A stretch of DNA of 10,515 nt from Myxococcota bacterium. Lineage in GTDB: Bacteria > Myxococcota > SpSt-1050. The stretch lies in contig JBMFOP010000101.1 in assembly GCA_049969675.1 (NCBI GenBank), positions 1 through 10,515 on the forward strand. The letters are read 5' to 3'. Every line of letters begins with the position of its first letter. Within the stretch, counting starts at the first letter, position 1. The notes beneath the pieces were generated by a model. It was not told the origin of the DNA and made no database searches. It was given only the letters and a program-made list of their open reading frames with translations. A program made the position numbers and the translations under genes. Positions 1 through 10,329 of the stretch are shown here, piece after piece.

Positions 1-390
1 CTTTTGGATTCCCTCATCAATATTTTGGTTATCTTCTGAATCTTCCATCTCATTTTCCACAATATTTTCAATTTTTTGTTTTGTTTCGTGATGTGAAAAT
101 GAACCGTCTTTTGCAGTGCTTATTAAATCATAAGTCTCTCTGTTTGTGCCAATGCCAACTAGAATTCTTATCCGCTCACTCCCTTCAAGTGGTTTATACA
201 ATGCATGAAACCCGCTTACATAAAAATAACCAACGAGACAATCAAAAAACTTGCAATCCTTTATTAGCTGTTCAAATCTATTTTTAAGTGTTTTACCCGC
301 TTCATTTACTATAAATGTTAAATCTAAAGATAAATGCTCATCTTCAGTCCAGTTATAAATTTCTTTGGGATATTTCTTTTCTTTGGTCAT
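1..390 (-). CDS. N-terminal 130 aa (runs off window) of a probable PLD-nuclease-domain / SNF2-family helicase of the kind found in restriction-modification/defence loci
   Basis: Hand translation from ATG 390-388, open to base 1: MTKEKKYPKEIYNWTEDEHLSLDLTFIVNEAGKTLKNRFEQLIKDCKFFDCLVGYFYVSGFHALYKPLEGSERIRILVGIGTNRETYDLI...SHHETKQKIENIVENEMEDSEDNQNIDEGIQK. The FDCLVGYFY.SGF and IRILVG blocks match, from recall, the N-terminal PLD-like domain of such helicases. The HxK and helicase motifs would lie outside the window. Missed by the ORF track because there is no stop in the window. Confidence 0.8.
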   Translation of the reverse strand, partial: MTKEKKYPKEIYNWTEDEHLSLDLTFIVNEAGKTLKNRFEQLIKDCKFFDCLVGYFYVSGFHALYKPLEGSERIRILVGIGTNRETYDLISTAKDGSFSHHETKQKIENIVENEMEDSEDNQNIDEGIQK

Positions 391-393
391 AAA

Positions 394-495
394 TTACTTT
401 TCTCTGCCTTTTTTCTTTGAGGAAGACTTTACATTCTCTGTTATCCTTTCTAATGACCCTTCACCTGTCCATTTATCTATTATATCTTTTTTAAA
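394..495 (-). pseudogene. Startless 3' remnant of a probable excisionase-family (HTH_17/MerR-like) DNA-binding protein gene
   Basis: Open frame FKKDIIDKWTGEGSLERITENVKSSSKKKGREK* ends 3 nt before the helicase ATG, in the same frame. FKKDIIDKW resembles the WRFKKxxIDxWI C-terminal motif of HTH_17 proteins. No start codon; upstream the frame is closed by a TGA inside the repeat. Confidence 0.5.
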
Positions 496-532
496 GTTTC
501 AATCCTTATTTTAATGGAAGTGGGGTTAAAAC
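496..532 (-). CRISPR. Solitary 37-bp CRISPR direct repeat (class 1-like, ATTGAAAC 3' end); not a multi-unit array
   Basis: Minus strand GTTTTAACCCCACTTCCATTAAAATAAGGATTGAAAC: 37 nt, GTTT...GAAAC ends, canonical 8-nt ATTGAAAC handle and a short TCC/GGA stem. The 3' 23 nt differ at one position from the recalled repeat-family end TCCATTAAAACAAGGATTGAAAC. Only one intact copy is present. Confidence 0.8.
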
Positions 533-651
533 GGATTTCAAAGAACAGGGATATCATATCAATTATTTTCTTAAATGCAAATTTGTTTTGGACAAATATG
601 GATCTGTATGTGTATTTTTTAGGTTTTTAATAATTAGAATTACAGTCAAAA
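533..651 (-). promoter_or_regulatory. AT-rich CRISPR leader-like region with sigma70-type promoter (TTGCAT-N16-TATGAT, extended -10 TGn)
   Basis: Non-coding, about 24% GC by hand count (29/119). On the minus strand -35 TTGCAT is at 580-575 and -10 TATGAT at 558-553, preceded by TGA, 20 nt upstream of the repeat's 5' end. Confidence 0.55.
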
Positions 652-2275: not shown

Positions 2276-3988
2276 TCAATTTTTGCAATTGTAGAGCTCT
2301 GTTAATCCGGAATAATTTGATTTCAAAATACTGACAATGTCTGAGAGTGTTTGATTAAATTTATTTGTTGAAGAATCAGATGTCTTAACACAAATTATGC
2401 GTTCATCTCCACAGACTTTTATCTCCTCACAATAATTCTGATGAGGGATCCTGTCCATCCATCTCTTAACACCATAAAGTGGTTTACCTCCCAGAAAGAC
2501 GAGCTTTACATCCTCTACTCCGAGATTTGTGATGTCCGAGTAGTCTTTAAGGCTGTCATATTCAAATATGGTTATATCCGCCACATAGTCCTTTGCGAGT
2601 TTGCCGAGCCTATCCTCCATTGCAAGTGCCTTTGCCGGGGTATAGGTTATCATATTGAATATATCTCTATCTGAGAGGGCATTGTTGAGTTTCTCCCGAT
2701 TATATCTGCCTACAAAACGCAACTCCTCCAGCATATTCTTTCCACCTGATGGATTCCAGTCCGGGGCGATGGATATATCCAGCCCAACATTCTTTGCTGT
2801 CTGGATATCTGTGGTGGCACCGTATAATCTTGTATTGGAGATAGGGGACCAGATGAGTTTGGCGCCCACATTCTTCATCTCCTGAAATTCTGCCAGAGTC
2901 AATGCAGTCCCGTGAATTATAGCGGTCTCCTTTAATAAGAGCCCTTTTTTCTTTAAGGTTGTGAATTCATTTCTTGAGAGGGTATCAACCCCCTCTGCCA
3001 GATGTATGACAAAGGATTTTACAGAACCATTCTTTGTCCCATTTATTATACTTGCAGCAGTACTATCATCCAGCGAATCTATAGAAGGGACATGAGTCCT
3101 TACATAGTCAAAACCGAATCCATTGTATTGTGTATCCACATTTCTCACCAGAACATTTATACAGGCAGATGTATATGAAGAGCCCTGAGATGAGGTGGTC
3201 CCTGCCAGAAGTGCTACAACCTCTGCAAACTTTACCATCTCGCACTTCAGATTTAAATTCCCGAGGTCATCAAAGGGCTTCTTAAATAACTTGTAGCTGC
3301 TATCACTCTGCCACTGATATCTATTTTGATACAGCTTCGTATTCTCCCACTTTGGAAGTACATTATAGGCAAGATGATTGTGTGCATCATATAGTGCTGG
3401 CATAATGGTGCCGTGGGTAGAGATGGTAGTAAATTTGCCTATATCGTTCTGATATGTAGAGCTGCAATCCTTTGCGACACAGAATATCTTATCACCAACA
3501 ATATATATCTCGCCGACATACGGGTCGCTTCCATCTAAAATCAGCCCTTTTAGAAGATATCTATCTGTTGAACTACCGACCACCACCTCCTCATTCCCTA
3601 TATCTACATCAGAAGGAGATACATCTATGCCCCCATCAAAACCTGCATCAAGGGTATCAGAAATATCTGTATAGTCTGGTATATCAGTTACATCATAGGA
3701 TATATCCAGAATATCTGTTGAGGCATCGGGCTTAACCGTTGTATCGTCTCCTATCAGAACGCACTCTCCATCTATACATACCTCATCTGCATTACAGGGG
3801 AAGAGACACTCCTTTCCTGAATCTATATCTGGATTGGAGGTATCCATTATGTATCCATTATCTGCGACATCAATTAGCAAGACATCGCCTTGAGTAGAAT
3901 CATTAGAATCAGTGGTAGAATCACCTCCACAGGAAGAGAGTGAAAACACCAACATAAGAAGGATAAGTATAAACGATATCTTTTTCAT
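2276..3988 (-). CDS. Amidohydrolase-superfamily (deaminase-like) lipoprotein with Asp-rich and Cys-rich N-terminal tether
   Basis: Lipobox LSSC at residue 20. Metal-binding motifs DAHNH (HxH), IHLAEG (HxxE), IIHGTAL and APDW, and the C-terminal GKLAKDYVADI beta-strand motif. RBS GGAGG upstream of the ATG. Confidence 0.88.
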   Translation of the reverse strand: MKKISFILILLMLVFSLSSCGGDSTTDSNDSTQGDVLLIDVADNGYIMDTSNPDIDSGKECLFPCNADEVCIDGECVLIGDDTTVKPDASTDILDISYDVTDIPDYTDISDTLDAGFDGGIDVSPSDVDIGNEEVVVGSSTDRYLLKGLILDGSDPYVGEIYIVGDKIFCVAKDCSSTYQNDIGKFTTISTHGTIMPALYDAHNHLAYNVLPKWENTKLYQNRYQWQSDSSYKLFKKPFDDLGNLNLKCEMVKFAEVVALLAGTTSSQGSSYTSACINVLVRNVDTQYNGFGFDYVRTHVPSIDSLDDSTAASIINGTKNGSVKSFVIHLAEGVDTLSRNEFTTLKKKGLLLKETAIIHGTALTLAEFQEMKNVGAKLIWSPISNTRLYGATTDIQTAKNVGLDISIAPDWNPSGGKNMLEELRFVGRYNREKLNNALSDRDIFNMITYTPAKALAMEDRLGKLAKDYVADITIFEYDSLKDYSDITNLGVEDVKLVFLGGKPLYGVKRWMDRIPHQNYCEEIKVCGDERIICVKTSDSSTNKFNQTLSDIVSILKSNYSGLTELYNCKN

Positions 3989-4055
3989 AAATGACCTCCG
4001 AGCCAGGATGGAATTATATCAGCAAAATGGAGATAATAAAACAGAAAATTTATGT

Positions 4056-5267
4056 CTATTCATATCTAAGGGCATCAATGGGGTTCATATCGGCGGCTCG
4101 TTTTGCAGGGAATACTCCAAATATTATGCCGACAGCCACAGAAAAACCGAATGAAAGCATAAATATCCACGGTGTCAGCTGCACCTGAAAGTCTGGCACT
4201 AATGAATTAAATACGATTATTGTAAGCAGTCCAAGCAAGAGGCCGACTACCCCTCCGAGCAGAGAGATTGTTACACTCTCAATTAAGAATTGAATTAGTA
4301 TATCAGACCTTCTGGCACCGACAGCGATTCTGATACCAATCTCACGGGTCTTCTCCTTGACTGTCACAAGCATAATGTTCATAATCCCGATGCCCCCTAC
4401 CAGAAGAGATATACTTGCAATCCCGAGTACGACCAGTTGCATAGTGGACGCAATCTTTTCAAATGTGGAGAGCATATCCTTCTGAGAAATTATTGTAAAG
4501 TCCTCATTCCCATTATGTGCCTTTTTCATCAATTCATTTATCTCATCTATTGCTGCATCTACATTTGAGGCGGAATTTGCCTTAACTGTTATCCTTGTAA
4601 GTCCTTCTTGATTAAACATATCCATTGCTATAGTAAGAGGGATATATACAATGTCGTCCATATCAATTCCGAGTGATTGTCCCTTGCTCTGCATTACCCC
4701 AATTACAGTGAATCGCCCGCCAGCCACAGTCATCTGTTTCCCGAGCCGATTCTCGCCCTGAAAGAGCTCTTTTAGAACCGTGTGGCCAATAACCGCTACC
4801 TTCTTGCGACTTGATACATCTTCCTCAGATATAAAAGAGCCGCTTTCAACTGGCATATTATGAATATATGAAAATGTCTCATTTGTACCTATTATCATCA
4901 GATCTCTCTGTCTATTCTGATATTTTGTATTCCCTCCCCCCATTATAAGACCATTTACTGTCTCAAATGTCCTTCCCCGTTTTTTTAAGAACACCATATC
5001 AGAGAGACTGAGCTTCCTTACTGTATTAATCATCGGGTGTGGCGCTCCACCTTTTGTATCTTTTTTACCTGGCAACACAATCAGTAGATTTGAACCCATA
5101 CCGGAGAACAGATCTGCGAAATAGATTTTTGCCCCTTCGCCGAGTGATACGAGGATTACAACAGAATATACACCAATTACAATCCCGAGTGTGGTCAGAA
5201 ATGTCCGCCATTTATTCAGAAGGGCAGATTGAAACGCTGTCTTAAAAAACTCAAAGAGATCCACCAC
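4056..5267 (-). CDS. MacB/FtsX-family ABC transporter permease
   Basis: RTFLTTLGIVIGV N-terminal TM, large periplasmic domain, SLLVGGIGIMNIMLVTVKEKTREIGIRIAVGA signature and PIDALRYE C-terminus. GTG start (5267 or 5264) after AAGGAGA. Confidence 0.95.
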   Translation of the reverse strand: MVDLFEFFKTAFQSALLNKWRTFLTTLGIVIGVYSVVILVSLGEGAKIYFADLFSGMGSNLLIVLPGKKDTKGGAPHPMINTVRKLSLSDMVFLKKRGRTFETVNGLIMGGGNTKYQNRQRDLMIIGTNETFSYIHNMPVESGSFISEEDVSSRKKVAVIGHTVLKELFQGENRLGKQMTVAGGRFTVIGVMQSKGQSLGIDMDDIVYIPLTIAMDMFNQEGLTRITVKANSASNVDAAIDEINELMKKAHNGNEDFTIISQKDMLSTFEKIASTMQLVVLGIASISLLVGGIGIMNIMLVTVKEKTREIGIRIAVGARRSDILIQFLIESVTISLLGGVVGLLLGLLTIIVFNSLVPDFQVQLTPWIFMLSFGFSVAVGIIFGVFPAKRAADMNPIDALRYE

Positions 5268-5949
5268 TATTCTCCTTATCTTCTATAATATTCCCATCAA
5301 GTATCCTCACAATCCTTCTCGCCACATTTGCCACATTCAGGTCGTGAGTAACCAGTACAATCGTCACACCCTTCTCAGAGTTTAGCTTGCCAAAAAGGGA
5401 GATAATCTCCTTACCTACCTTCTGGTCCAGATTCCCTGTTGGTTCATCAGCAAGAATAATATCTGGATTATTCACAATAGCCCTCGCAATCGCCACCCTC
5501 TGACGTTCACCTCCTGAGAGCTCAGATGGTCTGTGCCTATTTCTATGAGTTAGGTTTGCACTCTTTAATGCCTTTAGTGCGAGCCTCTCACGCTCCCGTG
5601 GACCGACACCGCTATAGAGAAGAGGGAGGGCGACATTATTTAACACATTATATTGTGGGAGAAGATTGTAATTCTGAAAGACGAAGCCAATTCGTCTATT
5701 CCTCATATAAGCGAGCTTCTCATCCCTCAGATCCTTTACATTTACACCGTCAAAGAAGTAATCACCGCTGGTTGGACTCTCCAGACATCCGAGAATATGC
5801 ATTAGAGTTGACTTACCAGACCCAGAGGGACCTATTATAGATATAAACTCCCCTTTCTCAATTTTGAGATTTATATTATTTAAGGCGACAACTTCCTCTG
5901 AGCCCAGATGATAGATTCGAGAGATATTCTTGAGTTCAATGAGTGCCAT
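5251..5949 (-). CDS. ABC transporter ATP-binding protein (MacB/LolD/FtsE-like)
   Basis: Walker A GPSGSGKST, Q-loop GFVFQ, signature LSGGERQRV, Walker B/D-loop ILADEPTGNLD, H-loop VTHD. Start is coupled to the upstream stop (TGATG). Confidence 0.97.
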   Translation of the reverse strand: MALIELKNISRIYHLGSEEVVALNNINLKIEKGEFISIIGPSGSGKSTLMHILGCLESPTSGDYFFDGVNVKDLRDEKLAYMRNRRIGFVFQNYNLLPQYNVLNNVALPLLYSGVGPRERERLALKALKSANLTHRNRHRPSELSGGERQRVAIARAIVNNPDIILADEPTGNLDQKVGKEIISLFGKLNSEKGVTIVLVTHDLNVANVARRIVRILDGNIIEDKENSGGSL

Positions 5950-7091
5950 CAGAACTTCCTGGACCTCTTCATTGTTCGCTTATTTATCTTCATTCCATCT
6001 TTTAACTCTTCAGAGTTGAGGGGCACCACAACCTTCTCTAATTCAGTTACTCCCGAAAGAATCTCTGTCTTCTCCCAGTTAGAAAGACCTGTTTCAATTG
6101 CCTTTTTTTCAATTGTATCTCCTTTGATTACATATACATATTTCTCACCATATTTCCCGACAATCACCTGTGATGGCAGATACTTTACAGACTCTTTTTT
6201 GTTTACTACCACCTCTGCCTCAAATGTCATCCCTATTCTCATATCAGGTTCTGGTGTAGATATCTCAAAATGCACCTCTACACCTCGGGACGCCTTGATG
6301 TCCGTTGAGACGACCGGTGATATCCAGCTAACCCTCCCTTCAATAACCCTTCCCTGAACGGCATCCGTCTTTAATCTGACCTTCATACCTGTTGTAATTT
6401 TCGCTGCGTCTACTTCATCAAATCGGGCAGAGAGATAATACCTCTCATCGCTAAAGAGTTCATATATTGGTGTTCCGGGGACCAGATACTCCCCTATCTC
6501 AACGAACATATCAGATATGACTCCATCAAAGGGCGCCCTGATTAGCGTATTCTCATATAGAGAGCGTGCAATCTTTAGTTGTGCCTCCAGTTGAAGTATA
6601 TTTGCCTCAGAGACATTTAATGCCTCCTGAATCACCTGAGATTCTGTCTTTGCCTGATCCAGATTTGATTCAGAGACCACCTTCTCTGAGAATAGCCTCT
6701 CTGCCCTCTCAAGGCTCTTCTGAAGATTTGAAGACCTTATCTTTGTCTGCCTTAATTGAGCTATACCGGCATTAAGGTTTGCCTCTGCAAGTTTAAGCCT
6801 TGCAAACTGCTCATCATTCTTAAGTTTGATAATTAAGTCGCCTCTTTTTACTCTATCACCCTTCCTGAAGAATATCTTCTCTATCTCCCCATTTGTAGAT
6901 GCCCTTATATGTGCAGACATATCCGGTTGGAGGACTGCATTTGAGAGTGGGGTTACAACCTCCTCAATATCGCCTTCCATCAGGACGGTATATTCAACAT
7001 CTAAAAGCCTTTTGGGCCAGAGATAAAAGAGTAGAAAGATGACTGTCAGGGGAAGTATGACATATCTGAATATTTTCTTTACAGTGTTCAA
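5949..7091 (-). CDS. Periplasmic adaptor / membrane-fusion protein (MacA/HlyD family)
   Basis: N-terminal TM, lipoyl-like halves (GEIEKIFFRKGDRVKRGDLI; IRAPFDGVI), coiled-coil hairpin, FDEVD and MRIGMT motifs. Start placed at TTG 7091 after a GAGGAG RBS, just downstream of the upstream gene's stop at 7096. Confidence 0.92.
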   Translation of the reverse strand: MNTVKKIFRYVILPLTVIFLLFYLWPKRLLDVEYTVLMEGDIEEVVTPLSNAVLQPDMSAHIRASTNGEIEKIFFRKGDRVKRGDLIIKLKNDEQFARLKLAEANLNAGIAQLRQTKIRSSNLQKSLERAERLFSEKVVSESNLDQAKTESQVIQEALNVSEANILQLEAQLKIARSLYENTLIRAPFDGVISDMFVEIGEYLVPGTPIYELFSDERYYLSARFDEVDAAKITTGMKVRLKTDAVQGRVIEGRVSWISPVVSTDIKASRGVEVHFEISTPEPDMRIGMTFEAEVVVNKKESVKYLPSQVIVGKYGEKYVYVIKGDTIEKKAIETGLSNWEKTEILSGVTELEKVVVPLNSEELKDGMKINKRTMKRSRKF

Positions 7092-7095
7092 GTTG

Positions 7096-8340
7096 CTACT
7101 CCTCTGTAATATTAAACTCTTCAACAAGTTGATTATTGTTGTCAAATGATTTTACATTTATTGATGTATCACTCACATAAACTATAGAAAAGTTATAGAC
7201 CATCTGATACTTCACCATATAAGGCTCTTCTCCCACCTCATACTTAATCTCCCCTTCTGGATACAGAGGGGCTCCACCTCCACCTGAGACAAGATAATGA
7301 ATTCCGTCTTTATGCAGGTGTTCATAGAGATGATTATGCCCATTAAATACAAGTTTTGTACGGGTGGTTTTAAGTAGTGGCACAATGTAATTTCTGGCTT
7401 CTGCATCTGGAGAGTGCCTTGAGAATGTATATGGCGGATTATGAAATGCCACAAAGATATACTTTATATTCTTATTTGAATCCGCCGTCTCTATGTCCTG
7501 CTTAAACCATCTGTACTGCTCTGTATCATCTGAAATACCACACTCTATGCATAGAACAATAAAATGAGATTTCCCCCAATCAAATGAGTAATATCTATTC
7601 TCTCCATTCGGGAAGAGAAGCTGTCTCTTCCAGATATCCTCTCCACCACTCTCGTGATTTCCAAATGCCACAAAGAGCGCCGCCTTTCGAAATAATTGTG
7701 ACCCATCGTTGAAAAAGAGATACCACTCATCTTCAAGCCCACCTGAAAATACGATGTCACCTGTATTTATCACAAATTCTGGCTCGTACTTTGCTATAGT
7801 TGAAGTAATCTCTTTATGAGTGGGATTCTCCGCCATAAAAGGGGCACCGGGTCTATTATCTCCATATATAGCAAAAATAAAGTTATTGTCGGAGGAAGGT
7901 GTATGGAAGCCCCCCTCAAATGGAGTGGATAGTGAGAGAATGCGATAATTGTACTCTCTCTCCTCAGAAAGATAGTCAAAGTCTATTTTATATTGATAAA
8001 CATTTTTGATATGCTGGTCAGGACCCATCTTTAATGGCTGCTTTTCTGGTTCTACTATGTAGAGTTTACCATTCAATTCTACATATCCAGTCTCTTCTCT
8101 GTCAGTCTCCCAGAAGAGTGTAAACGAATCTGCCCCCCTGTAAGTTATATATGGATATCTTGTGAGACGGGAACTGAATTTCCCTATATCCGATATACCG
8201 GCATCTACATCTGTATCTGGTGCCTCCACATCAACGATATCATCAGCAATATTTGTAGAACCACCGTCAGATGAACAGGCATTTAAGCAAAGACCTGCAA
8301 GGTAAATGAAACAAAAATAAAGGTGTAAAATTCTTTTCAT
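7096..8340 (-). CDS. Calcineurin-like metallophosphoesterase (purple acid phosphatase-like architecture) lipoprotein
   Basis: Lipobox LNAC, Asp-rich linker and FN3-like N-domain (PY...FWETD). Motifs YGDNR, TGDIVF, FGNHE, FHNPPY, FNGHNHLYE, SGGGGAPLY. RBS GAGGT. Confidence 0.92.
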   Translation of the reverse strand: MKRILHLYFCFIYLAGLCLNACSSDGGSTNIADDIVDVEAPDTDVDAGISDIGKFSSRLTRYPYITYRGADSFTLFWETDREETGYVELNGKLYIVEPEKQPLKMGPDQHIKNVYQYKIDFDYLSEEREYNYRILSLSTPFEGGFHTPSSDNNFIFAIYGDNRPGAPFMAENPTHKEITSTIAKYEPEFVINTGDIVFSGGLEDEWYLFFNDGSQLFRKAALFVAFGNHESGGEDIWKRQLLFPNGENRYYSFDWGKSHFIVLCIECGISDDTEQYRWFKQDIETADSNKNIKYIFVAFHNPPYTFSRHSPDAEARNYIVPLLKTTRTKLVFNGHNHLYEHLHKDGIHYLVSGGGGAPLYPEGEIKYEVGEEPYMVKYQMVYNFSIVYVSDTSINVKSFDNNNQLVEEFNITEE

Positions 8341-8382
8341 ATTTATACCTCATAGAAAACATCGGTCTATAATAATACACTT

Positions 8383-8399
8383 TTGTAATAAAATTACAA
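8383..8399. promoter_or_regulatory. Perfect 7-3-7 inverted repeat, putative operator in divergent promoter region
   Basis: TTGTAAT-AAA-ATTACAA, about 40-60 bp upstream of the phosphatase start; overlaps a possible minus-strand TTGTAA-N16-TATTAT promoter. Confidence 0.4.
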
Positions 8400-8491
8400 T
8401 AAAAGATAATTGCTTTTCAATGTCAATTGACCTTCACCCAAAGGTTATTCTTCCAGTTCGTTCTAAATTTTGTTATTCCTCTTCAATATTC

Positions 8492-8520
8492 TTGCACTAT
8501 AATTTGATTGGTTGTAAAAT
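8492..8520 (+). promoter_or_regulatory. Putative sigma70 promoter of exbB-exbD-tonB
   Basis: TTGCAC (8492-8497), N17, TAAAAT (8515-8520); RBS AGGGAG at 8535-8540 before ATG 8546. Confidence 0.55.
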
Positions 8521-8545
8521 GTCCTCGCCTTTTTAGGGAGTATTT

Positions 8546-9184
8546 ATGCTTGTTCAGAGACTTTTAAGTATAACACTTTCGGGTGCTGAGTGGGTATTAT
8601 ATCTTTTACTCATTCTCTCTGTCTTCTCTGTGGCGATTATGATTGAAAAATTTATCATCCTTAAGATAAGGGAGGCAAAGCGGGAGAGGGTTGATGAGAT
8701 CCTGAAGAAAATTAAAGAGAATGGAATAAATTCTATTCAGAAAGAGATTGAAGATAAAAGGACATTCTTTGAAAAGGTTCTCTTATATGTCATTAGAAAT
8801 GGTATTGAGCCGCAGAAGAGGGAGGAGTCTATAAGTATTGCTATTATGAGGGAGAGGCTGTACCTTGAAAAGAGGCTTATGTTTCTTGGGACACTTGGAA
8901 ACAATGCGCCATTTATCGGACTCTTCGGGACAGTGCTCGGAATAATCAAGGCATTTCACGACCTCTCTATTAACCAGCAAGGTGGCGCTGCAGTTGTGAT
9001 GGCAGGTATCTCCGAGGCACTGGTTGCCACCGCTGTGGGTCTATTTGTGGCAATCCCGGCGGTGGTGGCATACAACTACTTTATGAGATGGATAAAGAGA
9101 ATAGTTACAGATTCCGAGACATCTGTAAGAGAGGCATTTCTGATTTTAGGTAATATTGAATCAGGGGATAAAGATGGCAGGTAA
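8546..9184 (+). CDS. exbB: MotA/TolQ/ExbB proton channel family protein
   Basis: LGTLGNNAPFIGLFGTVLGIIKAF and GISEALVATAVGLFVAIPAVVAYNYF signatures; followed by an ExbD-like gene and a TonB. Confidence 0.93.
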   Translation: MLVQRLLSITLSGAEWVLYLLLILSVFSVAIMIEKFIILKIREAKRERVDEILKKIKENGINSIQKEIEDKRTFFEKVLLYVIRNGIEPQKREESISIAIMRERLYLEKRLMFLGTLGNNAPFIGLFGTVLGIIKAFHDLSINQQGGAAVVMAGISEALVATAVGLFVAIPAVVAYNYFMRWIKRIVTDSETSVREAFLILGNIESGDKDGR

Positions 9185-9581
9185 ATCTACAGAGAATGAA
9201 GAGATGATAACCGATATCAATGTGACTCCACTCGTGGATATTACACTGGTCCTCCTGATTATCTTTATGGTAACAGCGACATATATCGTCACACCTTCCA
9301 TTAAGGTAGAACTCCCAAAGGCAGCAAATAGTGAAGAGAGCAGCCCCTCTACCATCGCAATTGTGATTACAAAAGATGACAGAACTTTCTTAAATGGCGA
9401 GGAGGTCAACTCCGGTGCACTGGTTGAGAAGATTAAGAAGGCGGTTGAACTCAATCCAGATGTTCAGGCAATAATCAGCGCGGATAAATATGTCTACCAT
9501 GGAAAAGTGGTCAATATAATTGATGTGGTGAAGGGGGCGGGTATTACAAAGTTTGCAATCTCCATAGAAAAGAATGAATGA
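9174..9581 (+). CDS. exbD: Biopolymer transport protein ExbD/TolR
   Basis: INVTPLVDITLVLLIIFMV TM with conserved Asp, VELPKA, ISADK..YHGKVVNIIDVVKGAGITK. Start placed at ATG 9174 after GGGGA, overlapping the end of exbB. Confidence 0.93.
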   Translation: MAGKSTENEEMITDINVTPLVDITLVLLIIFMVTATYIVTPSIKVELPKAANSEESSPSTIAIVITKDDRTFLNGEEVNSGALVEKIKKAVELNPDVQAIISADKYVYHGKVVNIIDVVKGAGITKFAISIEKNE

Positions 9582-10329
9582 AGAGAGACTTACAAAGATT
9601 ATTTACCTATCTGTATTTGTCTCAATAGTCATACATTTTGGACTTGGTATTGCTGTTGTAAAAAGTGGAACAGGAGAACAGAAGAAAGAGACAATTATAT
9701 CATTTAATGTTGTAAAGGAGGCAAAGAAGGAGGTCGTTCCTGAACCACCAAAGGAAGAACCAAAACCGAAACCAGAAATTCCAAAACCTAAGAGGGTCGT
9801 TGACCTCACCAGAAAGGTAAAGATTGCGAAGCCAGAGGAGATAAAAGAGCAGAAAGAGCAACCTCCAATGGAGGCACAGAACGCACAGAACTTTGGAATT
9901 GATAGCTCCCTTGTAGATACCTCCGGGAAATCCTCCGTGGCGATGGCAATTCCTATAGGAGAGACTATGATTGGGGACCCGGGGCTTAAGAAGGGGAATT
10001 CAAACAAATTTATAAAGCCAGAGGATATAGCGCATAAAGAGAGATCGGTTGAGGTTATCAGTCAGATGCCAAAACTTATAAAAGAGGTAAAGCCCGTATA
10101 TCCCGAGGAGGCTAAGAGGCTGGGCATTGAGGGCTCTGTTGTGCTCCTGCTGGAGATTGATGAGAACGGGAATGTTGTATCCGCAAAGCCATTAAAAAAG
10201 GCCGGATACGGGATGGATGAGGAGGCACTAAAAGCCGCATATCAGCTAAAATTCTCACCCGCCCTCGCCGGCAAGACCCCTGTTAGAGCAAGGATAAAAT
10301 ATACATTCACATTTATACTGGAAGACTGA
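9574..10329 (+). CDS. tonB: Energy transducer TonB
   Basis: N-terminal TM with SxxxH (SIVIH), Pro/Lys/Glu-rich linker PEPPKEEPKPKPEIPKPK, and C-terminal TonB_C domain (PVYPEEAKRLGIEGSVVL...IDENGNV...FSPA). Confidence 0.94.
   Translation: MNEERLTKIIYLSVFVSIVIHFGLGIAVVKSGTGEQKKETIISFNVVKEAKKEVVPEPPKEEPKPKPEIPKPKRVVDLTRKVKIAKPEEIKEQKEQPPMEAQNAQNFGIDSSLVDTSGKSSVAMAIPIGETMIGDPGLKKGNSNKFIKPEDIAHKERSVEVISQMPKLIKEVKPVYPEEAKRLGIEGSVVLLLEIDENGNVVSAKPLKKAGYGMDEEALKAAYQLKFSPALAGKTPVRARIKYTFTFILED

Follow-up and report, generated by a model that had tools for sequence, protein, structure and literature searches.

How does a single, complete CRISPR repeat come to lie, without one intervening base, against the severed end of a gene that once regulated a chromosomal helicase cassette? 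The question is raised by the window analysed here, a 10,515-nt stretch of DNA that makes up the whole of contig C101 in G000, an assembly of 188 contigs and 3.05 Mb from a member of the Myxococcota. We consider it most likely that the lone promoter, boxA and repeat, fused to the truncated HTH regulator of a PLD-SNF2 helicase cassette, are a real, one-off chromosomal deletion scar. More tentatively, we attribute this scar to a crossover between a CRISPR spacer and the gene from which it had been taken. The window locus is not a new system.

Architecture of the locus

The repeat, the leader remnant, the HTH gene tail and the helicase gene all lie on the minus strand, and the features of the window are as follows.

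1..390, minus strand: helicase gene (PLD(HKD)-SNF2, defence-type family, about 1,090 aa when complete), of which the contig end leaves only the 5' part
394..495, minus strand: 3' remnant of an HTH_17/excisionase-type regulator gene, 33 codons and a stop, no start codon
496..532, minus strand: solitary CRISPR repeat, 37 nt, 33/37 identical to the type I-B array repeat on contig C164 of the same assembly
536..546, minus strand: boxA-like antitermination motif, fitting the E. coli and B. subtilis consensus
553..581, minus strand: sigma-70-like promoter with 17-nt spacing and a TG before the -10 box, in the same place as on C164
536..590, minus strand: remnant of a leader start, with homology (42/55 columns) to the 3' end of cas4 and the first leader bases on C164
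652..2157, minus strand: trypsin-like protease gene (Pfam Trypsin_2, E 1.5e-9), the left anchor of the synteny break
2276-10329: amidohydrolase, a MacAB-type ABC exporter set, metallophosphoesterase and ExbB-ExbD-TonB, all ordinary genes

The window looks chromosomal, as its genes are syntenic in congeners. The protease gene, whose stop lies 119 nt from the repeat, is kept in three congeners (completeness 97, 97 and 85), each with a different gene downstream and none showing the repeat; an intact array downstream of the protease, proposed as a check in relatives, was not found in any of the three. In one of them, G003, the protease ortholog is in two pieces (L015:3906-4613 and L016:2799-4331), each adjoined by transposase-like ORFs that were named by eye. 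Only one public run contains C101, and it is labelled hot-spring metagenome. Neither the left end of C101 nor C164 has a contig-end overlap in the assembly, and the rest of the window's helicase was not found there.

A gene tail that begins at the repeat edge

The open frame that the original prediction had described behind the repeat is as it was drawn: the tail stays open for 33 codons from 495 to 397, its stop occupies 396-394, and the helicase ATG follows at 390, 3 nt further on. Its proposed HTH_17 identity was supported by way of its relatives. Pfam gave no match to the 33-aa tail alone, while a phmmer search of 1.84 billion representatives returned five relatives at E ≤ 0.001, aligned over residues 1-31 of 33; four of the five match HTH_17, two of them over the curated cut-off. 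An HMM of 120 related HTH proteins matched the tail at 39.6 bits over model positions 42-74, and found no further HTH part when run across 300-760. What is left, positions 42-74 of a 75-position model, is thus an incomplete HTH_17 domain, residues 1-42 of about 75-79 being missing, and with them most of the DNA-binding domain.

The pairing of such an HTH gene with this helicase is native, as had been proposed. Of 20 genome loci with relatives of the helicase, six have the HTH gene, whole or in remnants, immediately upstream: one copy (L020, 79 aa) is intact, and the other five have been broken by a stop, by an insertion, by deletions or through decay. In the window, the cassette's own promoter and the 5' half of the HTH gene are gone, and this 5' half was not found in the G000 assembly, as a deletion predicts. 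The stretch at 533-651 was considered as a 5' remnant of the gene and rejected, because all six alleles scored within the shuffle range (P 545-959 of 1000) and the HMM gave no match. No HTH relatives were confirmed in IMG/VR.

At the DNA level, the alignment of the window with L020 extends over 511 nt at 79% identity, begins exactly at position 495, takes in all 99 nt of the tail and then runs on into the helicase, so that the homology is not limited to the roughly 38 nt of an ordinary spacer. Against the six HTH alleles, the window agrees at 113/120 positions over the 20 nt that follow the join and at 33/120 over the 20 nt that precede it, whereas in those preceding 20 nt the other five alleles still match L020 at 69/100. 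Homology therefore breaks exactly at 495/496, and the junction does sit at the repeat edge. An in-frame stop lies within the repeat, two codons ahead of the Phe that opens the tail, which makes the tail a predicted untranslated remnant and not a fusion. Of the earlier statement that foreign coding DNA occupies the place of the first spacer, the homology to a gene tail thus stands, and the translated continuation does not.

Tail and helicase are equally close to L020 (81/99 and 229/279 nt identical, respectively; Fisher p = 1.0), which suggests that the join is not very old. The same comparison, which has little statistical power, suggests that the join is younger than the four differences that the repeat has accumulated. 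A short HTH allele among the Logan proteins (P0001) resumes its homology at the same Phe, which may be chance; the four residues that it carries before the Phe correspond to repeat positions 4-15 coded in another frame.

The join in a second assembly

A Logan contig of 1,394 nt from run X1 (depth 8) spans positions 250-1500 of the window without gaps and with more than 240 nt on each side of the join. It departs from the window at three bases, 362 on one side and 555 and 913 on the other, and therefore represents a separate consensus, although the run itself could have been made from the source sample or from one close to it. The variant at 362 restores the residue of the closest helicase relatives, and the variant at 555 turns the -10 box into the full consensus found on C164. 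Among the Logan matches listed there is neither a near-identical intact HTH allele nor a continuing array, and the sole other contig that touches 471-495 is a decayed allele of the L023 type. Runs X2 and X3 do not cover the join, and no RNA dataset is among the listed holders.

The suggestion that the assembler had walked from a spacer into its protospacer, creating a chimera, is very unlikely in view of these data. The Logan contig is itself built from short words and may derive from the source sample, which leaves this explanation some weight. On the other hand, that contig crosses the join gap-free with a consensus of its own, G000 contains no array of this repeat variant from which an assembler could have walked, and the leader is already collapsed.

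The solitary repeat and its leader remnant

The repeat is present in one copy within the window. It differs from the C164 repeat at positions 7, 8, 11 and 25, while its 3' 12 nt are intact, and the two are the only full-length matches at 10 or fewer mismatches in the assembly, against a chance expectation of 1.6e-8. Its score against Rfam CRISPR-DR7 is 27.2 bits, where the gathering threshold is 37. Patterns of the repeat, both exact and degenerate, matched nothing in JGI metagenomes or IMG/VR, and in 401 genomes they matched G000 alone, the 400 other genomes of the phylum being without a match. The best candidates for a second repeat reach 20/37 downstream and 19/37 upstream, both in A-rich DNA. 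The locus accordingly falls short of a CRISPR array, which would have at least two repeats with spacers and a full leader, of which about 210 leader-proximal nt are missing here relative to C164; its repeat nevertheless belongs to a cas-linked family, that of the repeat behind cas1-cas2-cas4 on C164. RNA structure exceeds that of shuffles neither for the repeat (z -0.49) nor for 440-548 (z -0.33), and no RAMP family was found in G000. A chance origin of the repeat by decay of HTH codons was also considered and rejected, since only 13 nt are alike and the last 12 nt are unlike.

The DNA ahead of the repeat aligns with C164, a target that first surfaced as a blastn match at E 0.012, with a score of 55 against a shuffle mean of 27.6 (sd 4.2; 0 of 1000 shuffles reach it), and is gap-free between the -35 box and boxA. 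Comparison with Cas4 C-termini identified the final three cas4-like codons and a stop at 582-571. Promoter-like sites taken alone are not above chance (three found, shuffle mean 2.3). The promoter-plus-boxA module, in contrast to the bare motif, which occurs 23 times, is found at three genome sites, namely C101, C164 and a weak one on C19, and the promoter-to-boxA spacing is equal in the window and on C164. The boxA consensus of E. coli and B. subtilis, and the occurrence of boxA upstream of CRISPR operons, are described in passages of PMC13753749. Part of the likeness between the window and C164 leaders could be convergence on the promoter and boxA consensus. The DNA downstream of the cas4 ortholog in congener G003 is unlike the window, and the window unit is hence closer to C164 than the congener's is.

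What separates the two units is the distance from boxA to the first repeat, which is 3 nt in the window, 214 nt on C164 and 116 nt on a third contig, C136. On the strength of these alignments we read the window unit as a putative satellite copy of the C164 leader-array, minus the leader-proximal part and all but one repeat. The predicted CRISPR promoter now faces the helicase, about 160 nt downstream, and may drive it.

CRISPR systems and relics in the same genome

On C164, cas1, cas2 and cas4 are followed by the leader, a first repeat, a single spacer and a second repeat that runs into the contig end; an identical Cas4 (P0126) is encoded on longer contigs, of up to 19.6 kb. Other contigs of the assembly hold cas genes or their fragments.

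G000:C42:20865-27085: type I-B module with Cas8b split into a large and a small ORF, cas7, cas5, cas3 and cas6, running off the contig end
G000:C143:1604-1873, minus strand: second CRISPR relic, in which pieces of cas3 and of a cas2-like gene (the latter named by eye) accompany a single degenerate repeat of 30 nt

Judging from gene order, and with no overlap between the contigs, the interference module on C42 probably continues into the cas1-cas2-cas4 genes of C164, and the adaptation and interference genes of the genome probably belong to the repeat family of the window. A second type I-B system is seen at G000:C136:4287-4559, where cas1 is cut to 90 aa, no cas2 precedes the array and 12 repeats follow. 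None of the 30 spacers in the G000 assembly matches the window, and the protospacer of the single C164 spacer has no match in IMG/VR.

Precursor and protospacer-adjacent motif

An intact array, or a spacer matching the HTH gene, was found neither in G000 (30 spacers) nor in three congeners, 400 genomes of the phylum, JGI or IMG/VR. The related alleles bear on the motif that was to be looked for beside the junction. Arg stands immediately ahead of the Phe in 119 of 120 related HTH proteins, its codon fixing a G at -2, and none of six DNA alleles has a pyrimidine there. According to PMC13199841, a pyrimidine at -2 is common to the ten type I-B systems profiled, and all characterised Cas8b proteins prefer one. 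By this standard, which is that of other type I-B systems and perhaps not of this one, the G at -2 excludes a type I-B PAM at the would-be protospacer, and the PAM looked for at the junction is absent. It follows that escape from self-targeting cannot have been the driver and that any spacer must have been non-canonical, which leaves a tolerated, PAM-less spacer as a possible substrate for a crossover.

How the join may have arisen

Our preferred reading, to which we give a rough probability of 0.42, is a crossover between spacer and protospacer. The HTH gene would have supplied the spacer after the window repeat from a site that lacked a functional PAM, so that the spacer was tolerated; homologous recombination between it and its protospacer would then have deleted the remaining array together with the intervening DNA, leaving a repeat and spacer that continue straight into the HTH gene and, as a by-product, a CRISPR promoter directed into the helicase gene. 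The leader-proximal loss would be a separate deletion. This sequence of events fits the shape of the locus best, with its zero-gap boundary, its homology far past the length of a spacer and its one repeat with a leader remnant upstream, and it is favoured by the recurrence of the join in a second assembly with three base differences and by the presence of adaptation and interference genes in the genome. Recombination between spacer and target has precedents (Watson 2018; Varble 2019; both as cited in sections of PMC8616872). Against the crossover stand the absent PAM, the lack of a precursor strain and the 5' side of the repeat, where another deletion ends almost flush and is left unexplained by recombination, together with the breakage of the HTH gene by ordinary means in five of six related loci and the second lone-repeat relic on C143. 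Of the self-targeting recombination first envisaged, then, the shape is retained as the best fit, and the selective version is given up with the unfit PAM position.

Three of these counts, the PAM, the broken HTH genes and the relic with its cas3 and cas2 fragments and lone 30-nt repeat, argue equally for ordinary erosion, an explanation that is possible and nearly as likely. It was missing, as was the collapse of the leader, from the four mechanisms originally listed. A satellite or terminal repeat decaying near the cassette would have been reached by an illegitimate or microhomology-guided deletion that ended at its edge by chance. Both sides of the repeat are indeed eroded (3 nt of leader instead of 214, cas genes gone), a decayed array tail lies about 45 nt before the helicase in one of 20 related loci (L033), and a flush end, expected by our estimate in about 2-5% of such deletions, will sometimes be met in a genome-wide scan. 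Terminal CRISPR repeats usually decay at the 3' end, however, whereas the 3' 12 nt are intact here, and a 0-base 3' edge combined with a 3-nt 5' edge is jointly unlikely (≤1e-3, a rough and post hoc figure). The two edges of a repeat are the sites of Cas1 attack, and Cas1-Cas2 may have ligated a long, broken HTH-helicase end to the spacer-side edge, as a giant spacer or by end-joining, possibly with a second end, the distal leader, joined to the leader-side edge as well. We regard such joining as unlikely, although it alone would explain why both edges are flush or within 3 nt and although an intact cas1-cas2-cas4 module of this repeat family exists in the genome. No second repeat is demonstrable, the contig ending at base 1 and the remaining helicase being absent from the assembly; the PAM is lacking, as is the leader-proximal part needed for integration; and the repeat has four mismatches. 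In Cas4 systems, moreover, integration probably begins with the leader-side end, an order that would yield the opposite half-product. Slightly less likely is a more elaborate form, in which the CRISPR integrase would have stitched two broken chromosome ends, the distal leader and the HTH-helicase, onto the edges of one repeat, the product being kept because CRISPR promoter, boxA antiterminator and Cas6-cleavable repeat would control, from the 5' side, a helicase defence operon that has lost its own HTH regulator. The use of the repeat as the attachment site of an integrative element, also among the original proposals, is not supported and appears very unlikely. It has a precedent in phage AP1.1 at S. 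pyogenes repeats, with an 8-bp core (10.1101/2020.10.09.333658, as excerpted), and the HTH gene contains a 13-nt look-alike of the repeat core, matching at 12/13 in two of six alleles (reached by 13 and 4 of 1000 shuffles). Yet a crossover in this core would replace the last 12 nt of the repeat, and these 12 nt are intact; the gene brought in has itself been cut, its 5' half not having been found in the assembly; and an ORF listing of the six related loci has no integrase-like ORF adjoining the HTH gene.

Relation to known kinds of solitary repeat

In shape, the join resembles the CRISPR-phage recombinants between spacer and protospacer (Varble 2019 and Watson 2018, in the account excerpted from PMC8616872), in which a repeat is likewise followed by target DNA past the length of a spacer; in the window, target DNA begins at the first base after the repeat. 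Unlike the recombinants of that account, the window case is chromosomal and fixed in a natural genome, involves a host-type defence cassette and a type I-B repeat, and has no PAM. It cannot be filed as one of them, because no cognate PAM lies beside the intact protospacer, by the standard of other type I-B systems, and a precursor was not seen.

The standalone repeats, solitary repeat units and regulatory mini-arrays described by Shmakov et al. (2023; 10.1101/2023.03.03.530964) are similar in having a near-consensus repeat, a promoter of their own and no acquisition part of the leader, and the window appears to share this predicted arrangement, typical of a crlRNA. By comparison with those described, the window repeat stands outside a cas locus, has no distal degenerate repeat and is followed by a gene tail in place of a spacer; its position, which in crlRNAs is conserved in related cas loci, is unconserved, the repeat not having been found in 3/3 congeners. 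Instead of a seed match of at least 10 nt with a PAM in a cas or cargo promoter, the best 5'-anchored run in five regions is 9. A guide match to the cas promoters or to the locus's own promoter was accordingly rejected, a best run of 9 being expected by chance in A-rich DNA.

With the AP1.1 prophage (10.1101/2020.10.09.333658) the window has in common that foreign DNA abuts a repeat and that spacers are lost. In AP1.1, however, the crossover lies inside the repeat, with an 8-bp core, an integrase and attL/attR, whereas in the window it is the incoming gene that has been cut, next to a complete repeat. The eroded relic on C143 likewise combines cas or leader fragments with one surviving repeat, but a base-flush join to a truncated gene is seen only at C101. 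RNA anti-CRISPRs (Racr) are solitary repeats on a virus or plasmid that inhibit Cas, in contrast to the chromosomal appearance of the window.

A natural chromosomal case of such a join was not found in the literature, searched at the level of titles and abstracts with thin coverage of subscription journals. If the crossover or the integrase reading is true, the locus would be a natural, fixed case of CRISPR machinery rearranging a host chromosome and rewiring an adjoining defence operon, a kind of rearrangement demonstrated to date mainly in laboratory phage-host recombinants, and its signature, an entire repeat that abuts a truncated gene without a gap, would be searchable across genomes. If plain erosion is the cause, it is an ordinary relic of little significance.

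Variation in related helicase loci

The decayed array tail at L033:26-123, a Kryptoniota record, consists of a pair of degenerate repeats, each of 30 nt, and a spacer of 38 nt, and ends about 45 nt before its PLD-helicase. A repeat-like 10-mer in L019 lies inside coding DNA and is taken as chance. P0006, a helicase start with 98% identity to that of the window, is encoded on a contig of 1,085 nt that has about 260 nt beyond the ORF. Two more members of the helicase family were seen in G000 itself, both on contig C54: an internally deleted copy whose N-terminus is fused to a middle piece (7530-8030) and a full-length, divergent copy (14804-18163). In L022, at about 2278-2380, the HTH gene holds an insertion with 12-bp terminal inverted repeats, just 5' of the AGQW codons, and peptide scars like it are found in two other alleles (proteins P0003 and P0005), which suggests a small mobile element that inserts preferentially at one site.
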